A stretch of 64,000 nucleotides of DNA from a virus (lineage: Duplodnaviria > Caudoviricetes), in IMG/VR virus record IMGVR_UViG_3300035208_002098, positions 128,001 to 192,000 of that record; one strand, written 5' to 3'. Shown one piece after another: positions 17,148 to 53,675 of this stretch (position 1 is its first letter; each line of letters opens with the position of its first letter). The translations under genes and the position numbers were made by a program. Below the pieces are notes generated by a model. The model was not told the DNA's origin, made no database searches, and was given only the letters and a program-made list of their open reading frames with translations.

Positions 17148-17184
17148 TGACCCATGAGGAATTCGAATCCCCAACCTCTTGGTT
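17148..17184 (-). pseudogene. 3' half of a disrupted canonical tRNA (probably Arg)
   Basis: AACCAAG-AGGTT-GGGGA TTCGAAT TCCTC-ATGGGTC-A; acceptor strand pairs with the 5' half at 18014-18043. Confidence 0.75.
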
Positions 17185-17191
17185 ATTATTG

Positions 17192-17271
17192 AACGAGTGG
17201 AGGGATTCGAACCCACATTTACAACTCCGTTTACGTTTATATAGTTCGTAGCTATACTCGGTTACACTCGC
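17192..17271 (-). tRNA. D-arm-less tRNA-like RNA, anticodon ACG (Arg)
   Basis: GCGAGTG/CACTCGT acceptor, TATAG-CTACGAA-CTATA arm, TTCGAAT T-loop; overlaps the HNH stop. Confidence 0.7.
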
Positions 17272-17917
17272 TTATGATATTATATCTTTTAACCCATTTT
17301 CTGACCGTATTATCACTAACACCATATTTTCTACCTATTGCACAATACGACATATTTTTAATCATATCATTAAGTTCTAATTCTGTTGGCCATTCAACTT
17401 TCCTAAGGTCTAATCTAATTTTATTTACTGTTCTACCATCTATTTTTTTTACTTTATTTTCCGGTAAACCTTTACTTCCAAGACAATGTGTTGGTAAAGT
17501 TGAATTACAATTTGGGCATAAAAACCTTAAATTTTCTAATCTGTTATCATTATTAACACCATTAATGTGGTCTAATATTAAAGTTATTTTTTCACCTAAC
17601 CATTCACCTTTATTACCACATTTAACACATTTATACTCTAATAAATTATCATTAATAATTCTTTTTTTTATACAAGCCCGACTTATAATCGAATCCTTAG
17701 TAAAAAGCACATCATTTTCATACTTTGTTCGAACTCCAATATTTTCACGTTTTATTGTAAAATGACTAACATCTATCTCATATCGAACCAATAATTTCTT
17801 TAATATTTTATACGAACCACCAGACTCATTCCTATTTAGTTTTACCAACACTTCTCTATAACTATTACAACCAGCAACTATTATAACCAGCTCACTCTTT
17901 TCATATCTTTTATACAT
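17252..17917 (-). mobile_element. HNH homing endonuclease inside a tRNA gene
   Basis: CVKC, LDHINGVNNDNRLENLRFLCPNCN, C-terminal HTH. Confidence 0.9.
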
Positions 17918-18013
17918 ATATCGAACCTTTATATATAAATATATCGAATAATATGAAAGTTCGAATTATTTTAAATATTATTAGGTATTCAAAATCATAA
18001 AAATATAATATTT

Positions 18014-18043
18014 AGTGCTCTAATCCGATTGAGCTAATGAGCC
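18014..18043 (-). pseudogene. 5' half of the disrupted tRNA
   Basis: GGCTCAT-TA-GCTC AATCGGATTA GAGC-A-CT, then breaks off. Confidence 0.75.
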
Positions 18044-18059
18044 AAATATATAACGTTTG

Positions 18060-18143
18060 CGGAAGAAGTAGAGTCCGAGTCCAATGCCTTACGGCACACA
18101 TTGTTTAGCAAACAAGTCCACCAGCCCCAGTGGTTCATCTTCC
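18060..18143 (-). tRNA. tRNA-Ser(GCT), atypical 8/4 fold
   Basis: TTGCTAA loop, long V-arm, 8-position acceptor (one U-U), 4-bp T stem, T-loop CTCGGAC. Confidence 0.7.
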
Positions 18144-18165
18144 ATTTAATAAGTATTTGTTTATG

Positions 18166-18237
18166 TGACCTCACTGGAATTCGAATCCAGATTTAAAGTT
18201 TAGGAAACTCCCGTTCTATCCATTAAACTATGTGGCC
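18166..18237 (-). tRNA. tRNA-Arg(CCT)
   Basis: Canonical cloverleaf, TTCCTAA loop. Confidence 0.85.
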
Positions 18238-18238
18238 A

Positions 18239-18481
18239 TTAAGGATTAATTTGTTGTTGAATATCTTTAATATGTGTTACAATATTTTGAACATTAACAT
18301 GTTTAACTGCTTTAGTTAAAAAATCTATTGTGGTCTCATCATTTTGATACATATCAATAGCACCTAGAATATTATTTAATTCGTTACGTAATCGTTCAAT
18401 TGGTGTTTCATTTTCTTCATATTCACCATTTGAAAATTCCATTAAATTTTCTCTAATTTTAATTTTAGTATCTCGTTTCAT
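18239..18481 (-). CDS. Hypothetical protein
   Basis: 80-aa ORF behind TATTTA motif; KIKIRE N-terminus. Confidence 0.55.
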   Translation of the reverse strand: MKRDTKIKIRENLMEFSNGEYEENETPIERLRNELNNILGAIDMYQNDETTIDFLTKAVKHVNVQNIVTHIKDIQQQINP

Positions 18482-18511
18482 TGTATTAATATTATATACA
18501 ATAAATATCTA

Positions 18512-19114
18512 TCAATTCTTATAGTTCTTAACATACCTATCTTTTCTAGCAGAATTTTTATTCTTAGATTTATATGTTCCTAATTGCGAATCACAATTAG
18601 GGCATACACACCTTAAATTACTTCTAGTATTATTACTAGCATCACCATCAATATGGTCTAATATAAATACTATAGGTTTATTATTCCAAATATCTAACAT
18701 CCTACATATATCACATAAATTATTTTGTTCTTTTAAAATATGTGGTTTTATAGCTTTAGTATCATATAATATACCACGATATTGCTCTTGATTAATTAAA
18801 TAATTTTCATACGTTGAATTCATCTTATATTCACTAGAACATCTTATACTACAAAATTTTTGTTTATCATAACTAGTTGTAATACATTTACCACAATTTA
18901 AACAAATAATTTTTTTTATTGTACCAGTATTATATGGTTTAAAACCTTCAGGAAAAGTCTTCCTTGTAATCAATTGTATACCTAAACGTTTACATACTTT
19001 TTTTATGTAAGTATCACTAACACCATATATCTCACCTATTTTAGTATAGGGTAATTTTTCTTCAAAAATTAATTTTTCTAAATCACCCTTTTTGTATTTA
19101 TCTTCAAAATTCAT
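18512..19114 (-). mobile_element. HNH homing endonuclease
   Basis: LDHIDGDASNNTRSNLRCVCPNCD; N-terminal HTH and zinc ribbon. Confidence 0.9.
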
Positions 19115-19196
19115 AATATGTTTTATTATAAATATCTAGATAAATAATAAACGAACCAAAAGTAAATATTTTTTTAAGTTTACTTTTGGTTCGTTG

Positions 19197-19282
19197 TGAA
19201 CGAGGGGGGAGTCGAACCCACAAGTACTTTACAGTAAACGATTTAGAAGACCGTGACGCTTCCAATTACGTGCTACTCGTCC
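19197..19282 (-). tRNA. tRNA-Arg(TCT) with long variable arm
   Basis: ACGGT-CTTCTAA-ATCGT arm, 16-nt V region. Confidence 0.8.
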
Positions 19283-19303
19283 ATTACACCATGAAGGCAT
19301 TTT

Positions 19304-19447
19304 TTAATGTTTATATAATTTGAATATAGTTTCTTCTATTTCATCACGAATATCTTCATCCGTTAATTTAATATCCTTCATCTCATCTTCTATCATAATA
19401 TCCTCATTAATAATAGTCATTTCTATTTTATCATCTATGTTTTTCAT
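19304..19447 (-). CDS. Small acidic protein, 47 aa; not in ORF track
   Basis: MKNIDDKIEMTIINEDIMIEDEMKDIKLTDEDIRDEIEET; promoter at 19474. Confidence 0.5.
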   Translation of the reverse strand: MKNIDDKIEMTIINEDIMIEDEMKDIKLTDEDIRDEIEETIFKLYKH

Positions 19448-19532
19448 ATGTTTATCCTTTTACTATAATTATCACAAATATACTAAATAGTTAAGATAAA
19501 TTCAATATTTTCTTAACCAATTTATTAAAAAG

Positions 19533-19612
19533 AGGTCTAGGTGGGGGTCGAACCCACATTTACAATATCCATTACCCGTAACAGTTTCGAAGACTGAGGG
19601 GATTACAAGACC
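19533..19612 (-). tRNA. D-arm-less tRNA-like RNA, anticodon TCG (Arg)
   Basis: GGTCTTG/CTAGACC, CAGT-CTTCGAA-ACTG, GTGGG-TTCGACC-CCCAC. Confidence 0.7.
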
Positions 19613-19613
19613 A

Positions 19614-20015
19614 TTACCCTATTGGTGCAACATATCTAGGGTTTTCGTTTCTTAATATAGCTATTAACTTTCTAATTTCTTTAGGTTGTTCACTATACCA
19701 ATTATTGGCTTCAATAACTAAATCATTATATTCTTCCTCACTATAACAGAATATTTTACCATCAATTTCGATATCAGTACTAGCGAGTGATAATTCCGGA
19801 TAGTCAATAATAGGTTCTAAAACAATACCAGCAACGTTAACCCAAAAATTATAATCCTCATCAGATAATTCAATTCTACCGTTACTAAATAAACTATCAA
19901 TCATAATTTTAGCATCAAATATAGTACAATTAAAATATTTTTTAGCTTCACTTATAGCATTATGTCTACCAAATTTAAATATACCGTTATACGATATTAC
20001 ATAATATTTTTTCAT
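19614..20015 (-). CDS. Hypothetical protein
   Basis: Likely start MKKYY; promoter at 20037. Confidence 0.55.
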   Translation of the reverse strand: MKKYYVISYNGIFKFGRHNAISEAKKYFNCTIFDAKIMIDSLFSNGRIELSDEDYNFWVNVAGIVLEPIIDYPELSLASTDIEIDGKIFCYSEEEYNDLVIEANNWYSEQPKEIRKLIAILRNENPRYVAPIG

Positions 20016-20083
20016 AATTAAATTGTTATTAGAATACAAAGATAATACAATTAATTTAATTTACCAAATATTTTATTTTTTAG

Positions 20084-20168
20084 TACACCCGGAGGGATTC
20101 GAACCCCCAAGAACATAAAGTCACCTCTTTAGAAGAGAGGGACGCTTCCAATTACGTGCTACGGATGC
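20084..20168 (-). tRNA. tRNA-Arg(TCT) with long variable arm
   Basis: CCTCT-CTTCTAA-AGAGG; D region identical to 19197-19282. Confidence 0.8.
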
Positions 20169-20177
20169 ATTTTTAAG

Positions 20178-20264
20178 AGGGAAGGGTGGGAGTCGAACCC
20201 ACGATGGAACTTACGTTCACCAGATTAACAGTCTGGACTTTTCGACCACTAAAGCAACCGACCC
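20178..20264 (-). tRNA. tRNA-Asn(GTT) on a type II (Tyr-like) body
   Basis: CCAGA-CTGTTAA-TCTGG, V-arm GAAC-GTAA-GTTC. Confidence 0.7.
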
Positions 20265-20351
20265 ATGGCGTGATTATTTGAACTAGCGTTCTGGAACTAC
20301 TAAACCTCGTCATACTCTAATCACAATAACCAATAAGTATGCAGAACCTCG

Positions 20352-20432
20352 TATTGATGGTGGGATTCGAACCCACGTTTTCAATTTACCACTACGAATA
20401 TCCAAGATATAAGCTTGGCTCGGTACATCAAT
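20352..20432 (-). tRNA. D-arm-less tRNA-like RNA, anticodon TAT (Ile)
   Basis: ATTGATG/CATCAAT-A, CCAAG-CTTATAT-CTTGG, perfect T arm. Confidence 0.7.
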
Positions 20433-21010: not shown

Positions 21011-21015
21011 ATTTG

Positions 21016-21100
21016 TCGTCTGGGTGAGATTTGAACTCACGTTGAGAATTAATCTCACAGCTTATCAGGCTGTTTTCTGCCACCACTCGAATACCAGACA
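21016..21100 (-). tRNA. tRNA-Ile(GAT) with long variable arm
   Basis: ACAGC-CTGATAA-GCTGT, V-arm GAGA-TTAAT-TCTC. Confidence 0.75.
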
Positions 21101-22187: not shown

Positions 22188-22195
22188 ATATTTTG

Positions 22196-22284
22196 CACAT
22201 CGGTAGGGATTCGAACCCTCATCTAATCTTACGACCCTTAAGGACTGGGTTGGAGCCAGCTAGTCACGCCTAATGAGCCGATGT
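22196..22284 (-). tRNA. Atypical tRNA-Trp(CCA) with enlarged variable region
   Basis: ACATCGG/CCGATGT-G, CTGG-CTCCAAC-CCAG. Confidence 0.65.
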
Positions 22285-22469: not shown

Positions 22470-22562
22470 TTACAAGAAATTAAACATACCTGATTCGGAA
22501 TGGATAGAACGTCTAATGTTCGACCAATTACTATGAATACTATGTATATTATTATTTCTCAT
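22470..22562 (-). CDS. Leader peptide MRNNNIHSIHSNWSNIRRSIHSESGMFNFL (30 aa)
   Basis: ATG 22562 to TAA 22470; contains antiterminator strand CGAATCAGGT (22497-22488). Confidence 0.8.
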   Translation of the reverse strand: MRNNNIHSIHSNWSNIRRSIHSESGMFNFL

Positions 22563-22700: not shown

Positions 22701-23228
22701 TTATTTTAAAAATTTAGCTGGTACGTGGTCAGTTAACCAGACACCGTTAGTTGATTGATAGAAAATAAACCCTTCGTTATACATTTCACCGGCTAATACT
22801 TCAAATATAATTGGTTTACCATGTCTACTACCGACATTTGTGGCCGTTTCAATATCATTACTTAAATGAACATAGTCTCTTTTTAATTTTAGTAATCCAT
22901 TTTCATTAATCGATTTAACACTATCAATACTAGTACCATGATATAATATATTAGGTGGTGTTTTACTTTCATATTGTAGGTCAATACCTAATGAATGGCC
23001 TTGACTAGCTCTGATTTTTGATTTATCATTATTAAACTCAAATCTTTTTTTATTATTAGTTCTAACAATAAACTCAAGTTCTTCAATGTCTATTTTTCTA
23101 CCATTTTTATTCATTTGTAATAGTAATTGGGTAACTTCTACCCAACCACTATTATCTAATTTTAAACCTATTGTTTCTGGTTTATGTCTTAATATAAGAC
23201 TTAAAAACCTACTATTATCGTTACTCAT
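22701..23228 (-). CDS. kptA: RNA 2'-phosphotransferase Tpt1/KptA
   Basis: SLILRH, KKRF, IRASQGHS, LYHGT, VHLS, NGVWL. Confidence 0.95.
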   Translation of the reverse strand: MSNDNSRFLSLILRHKPETIGLKLDNSGWVEVTQLLLQMNKNGRKIDIEELEFIVRTNNKKRFEFNNDKSKIRASQGHSLGIDLQYESKTPPNILYHGTSIDSVKSINENGLLKLKRDYVHLSNDIETATNVGSRHGKPIIFEVLAGEMYNEGFIFYQSTNGVWLTDHVPAKFLK

Positions 23229-24351
23229 TTAACATTTTATTAAAGTTTTCTAATTCAAGTTCATGTATTTTTTTACCCATTTCAGGTCCGGGTTTAATAC
23301 CTAATTTTTCTATATCTTCACCGGTAACTGTAAATTTAAAATCTAAGAATTTATCAATTAATTCGATGTCCATATTGTTTAATTCAGCGAATCTAATAAC
23401 TTCATCATTAGAAATTTTAGATAAAATTTGTGATTTTTTCGCATTATAAACTAAATTTGGTTCAAAATATAAGAATGACATTAAGAAGTATATTTTACCT
23501 ATTTCATCACTAGTATATTTTAACTCAGCTAACACTTTTTTTACGAGTGCTGGTGAATTACCTTCAAATATTATGGCCATTAAAACAATTGGACTTTTAA
23601 CTTCAATTAAATTAAAATGTCTAATGTTTAAACCGGGAAAAATAAGTTTAAACATATCATAAACAAATAAACTATTTAAAAATTGTCTAACTGATTTTGC
23701 TGTTTTAACACCTTTAATAAATTCATCTCGAATTCTTTCTGGTGACACACCAATTAAGTTATTATCTTTAGTTATAGCACCAGCTGTTTTGGAGTTCATA
23801 TTAAAACCAAATCTAGCTGAAAATCTAATAGCTCTTAATTTTCTAAGTTTATCTTCATTAAATCTATCAATTGGTTCACCAACAGTTCTAATTTCGCTAA
23901 AACGTAAATCGTAAATACCATCAACTAAGTCAACTATTTGACTTTTTTCTATATCATAGAATAAAGCATTGATTGTTAAATCTCTTCTAAGTACATCCTT
24001 TTCTATAGTTGAGAATATAACTTCATCAGGTCTTCTTGAGTCGGTATAATCACCATCTTCTCTGAATGTCGCAATTTCATATTCGTCATTACCAGTAATA
24101 ACATTAATAACACCAAATGCTTTACCGGTTTCCAAGATATTAGTAACAAATGGTTGACCTTTAAGAATTTCAATTATTTTATCTGGTATTGCATTTGTAG
24201 CTAAATCCCAATCTTTTGGTTTTAACCCTAAATATGCATCACGAACTGAACCACCGACTAGGAATAAGTCAAACCCAAATGTTTTAAAAACTTTATTGAT
24301 TTTTATAACATCTTCTGGTAAATCTATTTTAAAATCTAATCTTGTTTCCAT
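23221..24351 (-). CDS. cca: CCA-adding tRNA nucleotidyltransferase
   Basis: VGGSVRD, DWDLAT, RRDLTINAL, EDKLRKLRAIRF, SPERIRDE. Confidence 0.9.
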   Translation of the reverse strand: METRLDFKIDLPEDVIKINKVFKTFGFDLFLVGGSVRDAYLGLKPKDWDLATNAIPDKIIEILKGQPFVTNILETGKAFGVINVITGNDEYEIATFREDGDYTDSRRPDEVIFSTIEKDVLRRDLTINALFYDIEKSQIVDLVDGIYDLRFSEIRTVGEPIDRFNEDKLRKLRAIRFSARFGFNMNSKTAGAITKDNNLIGVSPERIRDEFIKGVKTAKSVRQFLNSLFVYDMFKLIFPGLNIRHFNLIEVKSPIVLMAIIFEGNSPALVKKVLAELKYTSDEIGKIYFLMSFLYFEPNLVYNAKKSQILSKISNDEVIRFAELNNMDIELIDKFLDFKFTVTGEDIEKLGIKPGPEMGKKIHELELENFNKMLNE

Positions 24352-24408
24352 TTTATTGTTCTTTTTAATTAGGATACAAAGATAACACAATAAAATGAGA
24401 AAAACAAA

Positions 24409-25465: not shown

Positions 25466-26145
25466 TTATTTACGTCTATAATATGTTGTTAAAACATCAT
25501 CTGTGGCACCAAAATCAATTACAACGACTGTTGGTTCGCCATTTCTTAATACTTCACCATAAGTAGATATTTTGGCAAAATCACCCGGTACTGGGTAATT
25601 AAAATCATTAACAAAATCAGATAAACTCCTAGGCCACCCATCTTCATTGTTAATATAATAATCAAACCTTTCTTGTGTTAATAAATAAAATATTGGTTTT
25701 AAACTTCTACTCATACGTAAAAAATCGGTTAATTCTTTAAACCACATACCAGATAATTGTTCAAATCTTTTAGGTGATATTTTTTTAGCTAATTCCATTT
25801 CAACCCACATGTAATCATCATCAACATCAAATACTTTAGCGATAACATCATAATTTTGTTTATAACCCTGAGCTTCAGCTTCATTTTGTGCTATACCTTT
25901 ATTATTTAACGCTACTTTAAGTACTTTTTCATCATCTATTTTAAATACAGCTCTTGATGAACCAGACCCAAGTTTACCTAGCAATTTATCTTTAGCATAT
26001 TTAATTTTACTAGAATATGATGTTAAATTCTTAAATTCTTCAGGGTTAAATTCTGATGGGTACGCCATTTCATCAATCAATTCTTCATCAATTTTCAAAT
26101 GATAACCTTCATTTAATAACCCATTCCTTAATAACCCTTTATCAT
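25466..26145 (-). CDS. Protein-kinase-fold virion cargo protein; natural start appears frameshifted
   Basis: GSGSSRAVF..VLKVA, IDFG; ATG 26145 is 1 nt out of frame. Confidence 0.6.
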
Positions 26146-26147
26146 TT

Positions 26148-26555
26148 TTATTCAACACTTTGTAATTTAAATACCATATCAATTACATGTAATAGTTTAT
26201 TCTTTTCTATTGGTTTTAATATATACGCTATGGCACCAGCCGAATATACTTTATCTTTGAATTCGGTATTACCAGTACACATAATAACATCAATGTTGGA
26301 ATTTATTTCTTTTAATTTAACTAACGTTTCAAAACCATTCATATTTGGCATATTAACATCTAAAATAATTAAATCTATCTTATTAGTTATGAATTTTGTA
26401 ATACCATCACAACCACTTTTAGCTGAAATTAAATTACTTTTAGACCCTTCTAAATAAAGTTTTAATAATGTATGAACATTATCATCATCATCAATTAGTA
26501 ATATATTTTTTTTATTAAAATTTTTTATCATTTTCTTCAGTATTAAATTCGACAT
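26148..26555 (-). CDS. Stand-alone response-regulator receiver (CheY-like)
   Basis: ILLIDDD, LDVNMPNMNG, CTG, YILKP. Confidence 0.9.
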   Translation of the reverse strand: MSNLILKKMIKNFNKKNILLIDDDDNVHTLLKLYLEGSKSNLISAKSGCDGITKFITNKIDLIILDVNMPNMNGFETLVKLKEINSNIDVIMCTGNTEFKDKVYSAGAIAYILKPIEKNKLLHVIDMVFKLQSVE

Positions 26556-31387: not shown

Positions 31388-31470
31388 TCCGGCTAGTAGG
31401 ATTCGAACCTACGGGTTCCTAAGAACGTGGGATATGAGCCCAGTGCGATTGTCCACTCTGCCATAGCCGG
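31388..31470 (-). tRNA. tRNA(CAT) with long variable arm
   Basis: TGGG-CTCATAT-CCCA, V-arm GTTC-TTAG-GAAC. Confidence 0.75.
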
Positions 31471-32405: not shown

Positions 32406-32410
32406 ATTTG

Positions 32411-32494
32411 TTGCGGAGACAGGATTCGAACCTATACTAGCATTAACTGTCTCTTGGTTATGAGCCAAGAATGTTACCCTTACACCACCCCACG
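32411..32494 (-). tRNA. Initiator-like tRNA-Met(CAT) with long variable region
   Basis: C1.A72 mismatch, CTTGG-CTCATAA-CCAAG. Confidence 0.75.
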
Positions 32495-34492: not shown

Positions 34493-34504
34493 CGTTTATT
34501 CTAG

Positions 34505-34870
34505 TGGAGCATCGGGAATTCGAACCCCGGTCTTTCATATTCTTCAATACCTTTCTACATGTTTAGGATAAAGATTTCTATCTTTCCAATATATTCAGTT
34601 TAATATAGCTTCAACTGATACCTACGCTATTGACCCTAGATTAACCACTTGGAACAATTTTAAAGTGGGTTCTTGGTTGTATGCTTCGTATACTTAGGCA
34701 GCTACAGCCTCTCCAGCAAGCACTTCAAAAGAAGCCTCAGCAAGGAAGTTTTCGGAAATATTTAACATATTGCCATTTGAACTTTTAACTACTCGTTTAA
34801 AGTGAATTTAGTTATTTCACTACATGCTTACCACTTACGATTATACAAAATCTAAAGCCAGTTATGCCCC
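34505..34870 (-). ncRNA. ssrA: tmRNA; tag (A)GNMLNISENFLAEASFEVLAGEAVAA
   Basis: GGGGCAT/ATGCTCC-A with G3.U70, T arm, tag ORF 34774-34694 ending AA-stop, smpB nearby. Confidence 0.92.
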
Positions 34871-52674: not shown

Positions 52675-53675
52675 TATTTATCTCTAAAAAATATAGTTTT
52701 TTTCTCATTATGTGGTCCAACTCTCATGATTTGGTTATTATTTACTGGTGTAGACTTAATATTTTGGTGTGGTGTTACACTATCAGTTACGACTTCATTA
52801 CCAGATATTACCGGTTCTTCATCTACAACATCAGTAGAAACCTCATCCACAACATCGATAACATCATCAGATATTACCGGTTCTTCAATTATTTCTTCGG
52901 TTTGTTTAACAGGGATAAAAAAATCTTCATTAACGGGTTCAACTTCTTTTATATCATTAATAAATTCTCTCGCAATTTCTTTAGCTTCATCTTCCGACAT
53001 TTTACCAACAGGAACTTTGAATATTCTTTTTCCCGTACTAGAAAACCCCGGTTCTGGTTGTAACAAATTCATAATGTTTTCATCATTAAAATAATCAATT
53101 TCTTCAATATCTGATGATACACCCTTTGGTTCATCATTTATTGGTGTTTCGGGAAATGGTATTGGGTCAGTGGTTTCTACTTTTAATTCATCACCTTCTT
53201 TATCATTAAAGTTAACTAATAAATGTAAGAATGATAGTGATATTATTGGTAATAAAGCCCCAGCAAATGCTGCTAACCACCTTCTATGTCCATCAATATC
53301 ACCAGTATCTACCATACTTAACATACTGAATAATGGGTCAACTAATATAACCCAATCTTTAAATAATTTACTTGTTACATCAACATATTGAAATACAAAA
53401 AACATATTACCTATTAATTGAATAAATGTTACTATTATAAATGGTAGGTATATTGCTTTATTATTTTTAACCGCTAATCCAGCTAAAGCACTTAAAGCCG
53501 CTATTTCAATACCAACCGATAAATATATTGCCCAGCTCATCGGATTTGTCATTGAATACCAAGTTATAACGTGTGATATCGATACAAATGCAACGAATAA
53601 TATAGGTATAATATAAGATAATCTTATGATTGTCTTATAATTATTTGTGAACCAATTTCTAATACTACTATACAT
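52674..53675 (-). CDS. Multi-TM membrane protein with acidic tail
   Basis: 4 TM helices; portal-like motif in the tail. Confidence 0.65.
   Translation of the reverse strand: MYSSIRNWFTNNYKTIIRLSYIIPILFVAFVSISHVITWYSMTNPMSWAIYLSVGIEIAALSALAGLAVKNNKAIYLPFIIVTFIQLIGNMFFVFQYVDVTSKLFKDWVILVDPLFSMLSMVDTGDIDGHRRWLAAFAGALLPIISLSFLHLLVNFNDKEGDELKVETTDPIPFPETPINDEPKGVSSDIEEIDYFNDENIMNLLQPEPGFSSTGKRIFKVPVGKMSEDEAKEIAREFINDIKEVEPVNEDFFIPVKQTEEIIEEPVISDDVIDVVDEVSTDVVDEEPVISGNEVVTDSVTPHQNIKSTPVNNNQIMRVGPHNEKKTIFFRDK

Follow-up and report, generated by a model that had tools for sequence, protein, structure and literature searches.

The window analysed here comprises positions 128001-192000 (64,000 nucleotides) of a 248,412-bp viral contig (IMG/VR record IMGVR_UViG_3300035208_002098; Duplodnaviria, Caudoviricetes), with a G+C content of 27.7% and an estimated completeness of ~70%. 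ARAGORN identified 48 tRNA genes and one transfer-messenger RNA (tmRNA) gene in the contig, every one on the minus strand, and of these, 16 tRNA genes and the tmRNA gene are located in the window. Here we describe three additional minus-strand elements of the window, denoted genes 1, 2 and 3 (Table 1), at which ARAGORN made no call and which most probably encode working elongator tRNA-Arg(ACG), tRNA-Arg(UCG) and tRNA-Ile(UAU) with a permuted D-arm. We refer to tRNAs of this predicted type as re-threaded.

Anatomy of three candidate tRNA genes without a D hairpin

In each of the three genes, an acceptor stem of seven positions (including one U.U in gene 2 and G1.U72 in gene 1) is followed by U8-A9, an anticodon stem of five positions closed by a 7-nt loop of the form C-U-NNN-A-A/U, and a T arm of the form GTGGG/TTCGAnn/CCCnC. 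The connector between the acceptor and anticodon stems is 7-8 nt long (TAACCGAG, TAATCCCC and TACCGAG in genes 1, 2 and 3, respectively), and the 5-6 nt that separate U8-A9 from the anticodon stem do not form a D hairpin (positions 10-13 paired with 22-25, with a loop of positions 14-21). The anticodon arm and the T arm are separated by 23, 23 and 25 nt, respectively, and this segment contains two motifs common to the three genes, GTA(A/G)..GG and TTG(T/A)AAA(T/C). None of the genes encodes the terminal CCA. The three elements had been noticed in an initial annotation made from the sequence alone, and their coordinates, the normal acceptor, anticodon and T arms, the short connector and the motif-bearing segment were all borne out.

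The Rfam tRNA model RF00005 matches at exactly these coordinates, with two of the three scores reaching the cut-off of 29 bits (Table 1). In the Infernal alignment to this model, 15 D-arm positions are skipped, with 4-5 nt left in their place, and 20-22 nt are inserted in the variable region. The initial annotation had anticipated that gene finders would miss or mis-score these genes, and indeed ARAGORN calls none of the three, whereas RF00005 assigns low scores, one of them under the cut-off. Because the cut-off is reached for the other two, the genes should not be described as always missed by gene finders.

Table 1. Features of the re-threaded tRNA genes and their surroundings (window numbering; R1, covariance model of the family described in the text)
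Feature	Position	Strand	Details
Candidate re-threaded tRNA-Arg(ACG), gene 1	17192..17271	-	80 nt; RF00005 29.9 bits, R1 45.5 bits
Gene 1 acceptor stem	17271-17265 with 17199-17193	-	
Gene 1 helix X	17260-17258 (CGA) with 17236-17234 (ACG)	-	2 pairs + A.A
Gene 1 anticodon ACG	17249-17247	-	
Gene 1 D-loop-like U-A-A-AC-GG-A	17233-17226	-	then TTGTAAAT, then T arm
Gene 1 discriminator U	17192	-	
Candidate re-threaded tRNA-Arg(UCG), gene 2	19533..19612	-	80 nt; RF00005 26.8 bits (below cut-off), R1 48.7 bits
Gene 2 helix X	19601-19599 (CCC) with 19577-19575 (GGG)	-	
Gene 2 anticodon UCG	19590-19588	-	
Gene 2 D-loop-like U-A-A-U-GG-A	19574-19568	-	then TTGTAAAT, then T arm
Gene 2 discriminator U	19533	-	
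Candidate re-threaded tRNA-Ile(UAU), gene 3	20352..20432	-	81 nt; RF00005 39.5 bits, R1 99.9 bits
Gene 3 helix X	20422-20420 (CGA) with 20397-20395 (TCG)	-	
Gene 3 anticodon UAU	20411-20409	-	
Gene 3 D-loop-like U-A-G-U-GG-U-A	20394-20387	-	
Gene 3 TTGAAAAC	20384-20377	-	
Gene 3 T arm	20376-20360	-	
Gene 3 discriminator A	20352	-	
HNH homing-endonuclease gene	17252..17917	-	221 aa, C-terminal helix-turn-helix; PF01844 HNH, PF13384; phrog_10822 1.7e-45
Insert (HNH gene + gene 1)	17183-18013		831 bp
Ordinary tRNA, 5' fragment	18014..18043	-	acceptor strand, U8-A9, D arm GCTC/GAGC with loop AATCGGATTA, first 2 nt of anticodon stem
Ordinary tRNA, 3' fragment	17148..17182	-	anticodon-stem strand CCAAG, variable loop AGGTT, T arm, acceptor 3' strand, discriminator A
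Tpt1/KptA RNA 2'-phosphotransferase gene	22701-23228	-	
CCA-adding enzyme (tRNA nucleotidyltransferase) gene	23221..24390	-	PF01743 9.8e-37; phrog_2244 3.8e-51
tmRNA gene	34504-34870	-	beside tRNA array

A viral family with a proposed permuted tRNA core

Scanning IMG/VR with an 18-nt pattern, TTGWAAAYGTGGGTTCGA, identified 92 viral loci, and the layout of genes 1-3 is common to 51 of the 59 distinct sequences surrounding the pattern. A covariance model (R1) was then built from 24 Ile-type members. With a membership threshold of E ≤ 1e-7, R1 retrieved 78 distinct members from 47 sources, many of them without the starting pattern and nearly all in viral contigs. Thus, the model building and homolog search that the initial annotation had suggested, with an absence of covarying homologs as the outcome that would speak against it, yielded a sizeable set of relatives with covariation. 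In their own contig, genes 3, 2 and 1 are recovered by R1 with E values from 1e-25 to 6e-10 and with scores well over that of the best ordinary tRNA (28.9 bits), which places all three far beyond chance. Genes 1-3 are members of an extensive family, carried essentially by phages, for which a permuted core is predicted.

The members are 76-90 nt long, and their anticodons span all Ile types, all Arg types except CCG, and hardly any others (GAT in 23 of the 78, TAT in 22, TCG in 12, TCT in 11, ACG and CAT in four each, CCT and CTT in one each). Among 185,579 prokaryote species genomes, with one genome per species, the 18-nt pattern occurs at 34 loci, and family members are present at four of these, in three metagenome-assembled genomes (MAGs) and no isolates, compared to at least 46 pattern loci with members in viral DNA. 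A PHROG check of the four MAG loci detected phage-family genes at two, a hint that these two derive from phages, and gave an ambiguous picture at a third. Because three MAGs carry members, the family should not be called phage-only.

Two adjacent members were found in a published 642-kb phage genome (LR756502.1), which was also the only hit in a BLAST search of the three genes against GenBank phages, a method that is too insensitive for this family. Another member resides in the genome of Salmonella phage Felix O1 (AF320576), at positions 25951-26029 (+), where it scores 39.8 bits with R1 (E = 9e-10). This gene is of the tRNA-Arg(UCU) type, with the anticodon TCT, a CTC/GAG version of the three-pair helix described below and the sequence TAA..GGA following it, and it lacks annotation although the record annotates 22 other tRNAs. 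ORF100 of Felix O1 (26003-26395) overlaps the 3' end of the gene. In one viral locus (L042:3904-5165 (+)), seven members are packed within 1.3 kb (GAT, two CAT, TAT, two TCG and ACG), forming an array made almost wholly of candidate re-threaded tRNAs. We also observed a 95-97-nt tRNA-like gene that is nearly unchanged at L002:2478-2574 (-) and at more than 25 other loci, many of them in small viral contigs; it combines a normal D arm with the TTGTAAAY motif and a T arm in common with the family, and its middle part (..GGGAGTGCGCACCCC..) contains no ordinary anticodon arm.

In the family, the segments follow one another along the chain in a characteristic order. From the 5' end, the acceptor strand is followed by U8-A9, 1-2 nt, the first strand of a short helix, denoted helix X, one nucleotide and the whole anticodon arm; then come a linker of 3-4 nt, the second strand of helix X, the series U-A14-R15-N(1-2)-G18-G19-N20, UUG(A/U)AAA-Y48, the T arm and the closing acceptor strand. 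Helix X pairs three nucleotides shortly after U8-A9 with three others situated 3-4 nt 3' of the anticodon stem. We evaluated the pairing in two alignments, one fitted to the model (78 members) and the other a plain MAFFT alignment, shaped by no structure. In the model-fitted alignment, helix X is 91% paired: the first pair is CG in 72 members, UA in five and AU in one; the middle pair is GC in 41, AU in 18, CG in 18 and UA in one, with none unpaired; and the third position is paired in 57 of the 78, with four pair types. In the MAFFT alignment, pairing reaches 97%, with two-sided changes at all three pairs. Among the 21 triplet combinations seen, about 10 are perfectly complementary, including CGA/TCG, CAG/CTG, CGT/ACG, CGG/CCG, CCC/GGG, CAT/ATG, CGC/GCG, AGA/TCT and CTC/GAG.

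The remaining helices evolve in the same manner, with compensatory changes in every helix across the 78 members. For the whole structure, 96% of the cells in the model-fitted alignment pair, against 61% in shuffles (none of 500 reached 96%) and 35-47% when the partners were slid. In the same alignment, the acceptor stem is 98% paired, with two-sided changes at all seven pairs, and the T stem is 95% paired, with the loop TTCGAnn in 71 of the 75 members with a listed loop type. U33 is present in all 78 members, and position 37 is A in 76 and G in two.

Directly 3' of helix X, the chain continues with U-A-R, 1-2 nt and G-G. U8-A9 and the U-A preceding R are conserved in 78 of 78 members and GG in 77. 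The purine changes in concert with the pyrimidine that immediately precedes the T stem (A:U in 47 members, G:C in 30 and another combination in one in the model-fitted alignment, and 24 of 24 in the MAFFT alignment), and this pair was no part of R1. Both states occur within each of the GAU, UAU and UCG classes, and in two sequences that are 93% identical elsewhere, both positions switched together. Given the resemblance of this covariation to that of the R15:Y48 Levitt pair, we read the relocated bases as A14, R15, G18 and G19. On this assignment, all the core bases are present (U8, A14, R15:Y48 and G18-G19), with A14 to G19 located 3' of the anticodon arm. The description of the genes as D-arm-less in the initial annotation is thereby corrected: a D hairpin is absent, but a covarying 3-bp helix, with one strand on each side of the anticodon arm, replaces the D stem. 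The accompanying suggestion that the D-loop GG had moved behind the anticodon arm, where it could rebuild the elbow, is strengthened by the invariant or nearly invariant U8, U-A and GG, by the R15:Y48-like covariation, and by A20 in the Arg types.

For gene 3, RNAfold favours an alternative in which U8-A9-C-C pairs with G-G-U-A. We rejected this pairing as a feature of the family: it is 86% paired in the Ile types, shows no two-sided change and cannot form in the Arg types. The model fold lies 0.4 (gene 1) and 2.4 (gene 3) kcal/mol above the minimum free energy, an evaluation that is unreliable where U.U pairs were forced.

Ordinary tRNAs have their D stem stacked on the anticodon stem, and the chain runs up to the core through positions 10-13, around the loop of positions 14-21, and back through 22-25 and 26 to enter the anticodon stem. 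In the fold that we infer for the re-threaded tRNAs, helix X would likewise stack on the anticodon stem. The strand after U8-A9 would descend straight into the anticodon stem, taking the place of positions 22-25, and the strand behind the anticodon arm would rise into the core in place of positions 10-13, continuing with A14, R15, G18, G19 and N20 in the usual order, after which UUG(A/U)AAA-Y48 would lead on into the T stem. The U8.A14, R15:Y48 and G18/G19-T-loop contacts could thereby be re-established with no D hairpin present. Since each of the three new junctions connects positions that are adjacent in the canonical structure, an L shape with the usual contacts is plausible.

Several observations weigh against the permuted-core interpretation. 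Helix X is just 3 bp long, its copy in gene 1 contains an A.A mismatch, and a short 77-78-nt subtype of the family retains just CC/GG of it. Further mismatches are U.U in both the acceptor and anticodon stems of gene 2 and one U.U in the T stem of gene 1. The model-fitted alignment favours the modelled pairs, a concern that is partly answered by the MAFFT alignment and by the unmodelled R:Y pair, and since the members are related, fewer independent changes underlie the pairing than the cell counts suggest. Finally, the three-dimensional fold is reasoned from canonical tRNA geometry.

Amino acid identity, codon need and known tRNAs

The base that follows GG differs by amino acid type. It is A in 28 of 28 Arg types compared to two of the 50 others (Fisher 3.6e-19, an upper bound on the significance given that the sequences are related), and U in 35 of the 45 Ile types. 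Every Ile type has A as its discriminator (45 of 45), and the Arg types have U, A or G at this position. Accordingly distributed, GG-A occurs with U73 in genes 1 and 2, and GG-U with A73 in gene 3. In bacteria, the arginine identity set consists of A20, C35, U/G36 and A/G/U73, and the isoleucine set includes A73, U20, U21 and the anticodon (PMC9976931). The relocated segment thus carries isotype-specific D-loop determinants, a pattern that is hard to explain unless synthetases read this segment.

The anticodons TAT, ACG and TCG are found on none of the ARAGORN-called tRNAs of the contig, among which the ordinary ones for Arg have CCT and TCT, and those for Ile have GAT. In 115 long open reading frames (ORFs), ATA is used at 38 per 1000 codons (42% of Ile codons), CGT at 6.6 and CGA at 3.0. 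No match to ArgRS, an Ile/Val/Leu-type synthetase or TilS was detected in the contig, which is ~70% complete; in the absence of a contig-encoded ArgRS or Ile-type synthetase, host enzymes would have to charge the three tRNAs. We infer the following route of processing, charging and decoding. The RNAs would be cut from a minus-strand tRNA operon, CCA would be added by a phage or host enzyme, host ArgRS and IleRS would charge the tRNAs by recognising the relocated position 20 (A in Arg types, mostly U in Ile types) along with the anticodon and the discriminator, and the charged tRNAs would read the CGN and AUA codons of this AT-rich phage. An engineered tRNA lacking the D arm altogether is accepted by HisRS, EF-Tu and the ribosome of E. 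coli (PMC11551756), and in Mycoplasma mobile, tRNA-Ile(UAU) reads AUA without TilS (PMC3575796). By analogy, it is reasonable to expect, as the initial annotation had suggested, that the UAU anticodon of gene 3 could read AUA without TilS, which would fit known biology.

Full-text literature searches on such a layout in phages or bacteria returned no description. All known bacterial tRNAs are stated to be cloverleaves, with natural arm-less tRNAs found only in mitochondria (PMC11551756), and a 2020 review of non-canonical tRNAs contains neither the word "phage" nor "permuted" (PMC7609411). Ordinary class I tRNA-Arg and tRNA-Ile of bacteria and phages (RF00005) resemble the family in the 7-bp acceptor stem, the 5-bp stem and 7-nt loop of the anticodon arm, U33, the purine at position 37 and the TTCGAnn T loop, and further in U8, A14, R15:Y48, G18-G19, A20 in Arg types, U20 and A73 in Ile types, and the same anticodons. 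The difference is that the family's equivalent of the D stem closes around the anticodon arm, with the D-loop bases after it, such that the predicted secondary structure is not a cloverleaf. A changed order of tRNA segments along the gene is also a feature of the circularly permuted tRNA genes reportedly found by Soma et al. in 2007 in the red alga Cyanidioschyzon merolae, in which processing is said to restore a cloverleaf RNA. In the viral genes, by contrast, both termini coincide with those of a normal acceptor stem, and the permutation would persist within the core of the mature RNA. Among tRNAs with a UAU-type anticodon, the tRNA-Ile of phage T4 is an ordinary cloverleaf. The tRNA-Ile(UAU) of M. 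mobile (PMC3575796), which shares with gene 3 the use of a UAU-type anticodon for AUA without lysidine synthase, is an ordinary cloverleaf as well.

The D-armless tRNAs of mitochondria (mammalian mt-tRNA-Ser(AGY) and those of nematodes; PMC7609411) similarly lack a D hairpin, with a short connector joining the acceptor stem to the anticodon stem. However, they have lost the D-loop bases and the contact between the D and T loops and are flexible or Y-shaped (PMC11551756, PMC7609411), whereas the members of the present family, which are viral and 76-90 nt long, keep A14, R15, G18, G19, position 20 and a substitute for the D stem. The engineered "mini HisT" in E. coli (PMC11551756) is comparable in that a bacterial synthetase, EF-Tu and the ribosome use a tRNA without a D hairpin; unlike the viral genes, which are natural and have relocated D elements, it is artificial, with positions 11-25 deleted, unstable and limited by PNPase. 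Allo-tRNAs, with 8/4 or 9/3 acceptor/T-stem lengths (PMC5389517), are natural non-standard tRNAs from metagenomes, some of them in phages, but they remain cloverleaves with a D hairpin and altered stem lengths, whereas genes 1-3 keep the 7/5 arrangement.

If these tRNAs are charged and decode, the cloverleaf would not be the sole wiring for an L-shaped adaptor on bacterial ribosomes. Phage tRNA sets would then be under-counted (ARAGORN detects none of genes 1-3, and the Felix O1 record does not annotate its member), the scaffold could find use in tRNA engineering, and the family would offer a test case for the reading by synthetases of A20 or U20 presented from another strand.

An interrupted tRNA gene and the possible spread of the unusual core

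Genes 1-3 are part of a same-strand tRNA array, with genes for a CCA-adding enzyme and a Tpt1/KptA protein directly upstream; the former is relevant because genes 1-3 encode no CCA. A scan for promoters and terminators was not informative in DNA this rich in AT. Directly upstream of gene 1 lies the HNH homing-endonuclease gene, which overlaps the 5' end of gene 1 by 20 nt. Together, the HNH gene and gene 1 make up an insert that splits an ordinary tRNA gene into two fragments, with 18 of 18 standard pairs between and within them (acceptor stem 7/7, D stem 4/4, T stem 5/5 and anticodon stem 2/2). The split gene is described as arginine-like because A follows GG in the D loop of its 5' fragment, and the 3' fragment contains the only orphan T arm in the window. 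As read from these remnants, a unit consisting of an endonuclease gene and a predicted re-threaded tRNA has overwritten an ordinary tRNA gene. The possibility that the insert is a group I intron was rejected, given that there is no Rfam intron match and that the tRNA inside would be cut out; we read it as an insertion that broke the tRNA gene. As a separate observation, a 141-aa ORF without a Pfam or PHROG match (19614-20039 (-)) ends 2 nt before gene 2, an arrangement like that of the HNH gene and gene 1.

We tentatively propose, as a possibility short of an even chance, that this non-cloverleaf natural tRNA works on bacterial ribosomes and that its core spread among phages by conferring immunity to an agent directed against ordinary tRNA-Arg and tRNA-Ile or against the genes for them. 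This agent could act on DNA, as a homing endonuclease would, or on RNA, as a tRNA-directed nuclease would. Immunity at the DNA level is suggested by the HNH-tRNA cassette that overwrote an ordinary arginine-like tRNA gene in this contig.

Two narrower explanations, both compatible with genes 1-3 being working tRNAs, deserve consideration, although each is unlikely on its own. Under the first, the odd wiring was selected to escape a nuclease or defence system that reads the D-arm or the core of ordinary tRNA-Arg and tRNA-Ile, be it a host anti-phage tRNase or a phage weapon directed against host tRNAs. The near-confinement of the design to viral DNA (at least 46 viral loci compared to four loci in three MAGs among the species genomes searched) is in line with such escape, as is the near-complete private tRNA set of the contig, and defences that cut the tRNA body, along with phage tRNAs that counter them, have been published, such as Septu, which acts on the variable loop of tRNA-Tyr (PMC13096335). 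However, the anticodon stem-loop is ordinary, such that anticodon nucleases would still cut these tRNAs; ordinary Arg(CCU) and Ile(GAU) tRNAs are kept on the same contig; and no nuclease specific for the cores of Arg or Ile tRNAs was identified in this analysis.

The second explanation, to which we would likewise give a minor share of the probability, places the advantage at the DNA level: the re-threaded gene would be a cleavage-immune replacement that travels with a homing endonuclease destroying the ordinary tRNA gene. Apart from the split gene, with its fully paired fragments, 19 of the 46 family loci contain homologs of the HNH and GIY-YIG endonucleases of the window, in many cases no more than ~1 kb from a member (a count taken at family loci alone), and SegB of phage T4 offers a precedent, being a homing endonuclease that is active within a cluster of tRNA genes (PMC2330249). 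Against this, phage tRNA islands often harbour homing endonuclease genes in any case, genes 2 and 3 have no split remnant alongside, the anticodon of the split gene is lost, and exact-pattern scans found no uninterrupted relative of it. The cassette evidence supports, without proving, a component of selfish spread, and, if the tRNAs are charged and decode, the link to homing endonucleases would provide a testable route for the spread of a new tRNA architecture.

The initial annotation had also raised the idea of decoys, that is, tRNA-like sponges that bind a host factor and are unused in translation. Such a role could be accommodated with the unusual core and with gene finders missing or under-scoring the genes, but we consider it very improbable. 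A decoy needs no seven class-matched anticodons, no Arg-specific A20, Ile-specific A73, U33 or purine 37, and no exact filling of the anticodon gaps of the contig; the synthetase identity elements are kept, and the three genes alone, in comparison with the ARAGORN-called tRNAs, carry anticodons for the ATA and CGN codons that are in use.

Similarly hard to sustain is a truly D-armless tRNA in which the additional 23-25 nt fold into a separate hairpin resembling a long variable arm instead of pairing across the anticodon arm. Gene 3 offers such a pairing, between TTC and GAA, and RNAfold predicts other local pairings in genes 1 and 3, but across the family, a hairpin of this type is 54% paired without a single two-sided change, with its 3' strand falling in the invariant TTGAAAA and its 5' strand varying freely, the opposite of the behaviour of helix X. 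Thus, the extra nucleotides do not form the separate stem-loop that defines class II tRNAs. That the genes are decayed tRNA pseudogenes or chance tRNA-like sequences, as the low Rfam scores (26.8-39.5 bits) and some stem mismatches might suggest, has a probability close to nil in view of the 78 distinct, conserved family members, in which all the helices show compensatory changes, and of the genuinely broken tRNA gene next door, available for comparison.

Other unusual elements were observed in and around the array. Ahead of it, a short ORF, MRNNNIHSIHSNWSNIRRSIHSESGMFNFL (22470-22560 (-)), is spelled almost only in the amino acids of the downstream tRNAs and is followed by a hairpin and a T tract; its Ile and Arg codons include ATA and CGT, a weak argument in favour of decoding. 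An uncalled tRNA-like gene of ~84 nt (~18060-18143 (-)) combines a D stem of 5 bp with a long variable arm, GUGCC-GUAA-GGCAU; its anticodon loop may present GCU (Ser AGY), and its T arm is irregular and lacks TTCGA. Of the Ser codons, AGT makes up 35%, and no tRNA-Ser(GCU) was called in the contig. The window also contains 83-90-nt copies with long variable arms of tRNAs for isotypes outside class II, namely, Arg-UCU, Asn, Ile-GAU, Trp and Met (19196-19282, 20083-20168, 20177-20264, 21015-21100, 22195-22284, 31388-31470 and 32410-32494, all (-)), mostly located beside a normal 72-75-nt copy with the same anticodon. Elsewhere in the contig, the same pattern is seen for Lys, Glu, Gln and Thr, and Val and Cys have a long copy only. 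Also outside the window are a 68-nt CAT element without a D stem (109673-109740 (-)) and two tRNA-like elements with large inserts, of 133 nt (52918-53050 (-)) and 95 nt (109382-109476 (-)) in total length.

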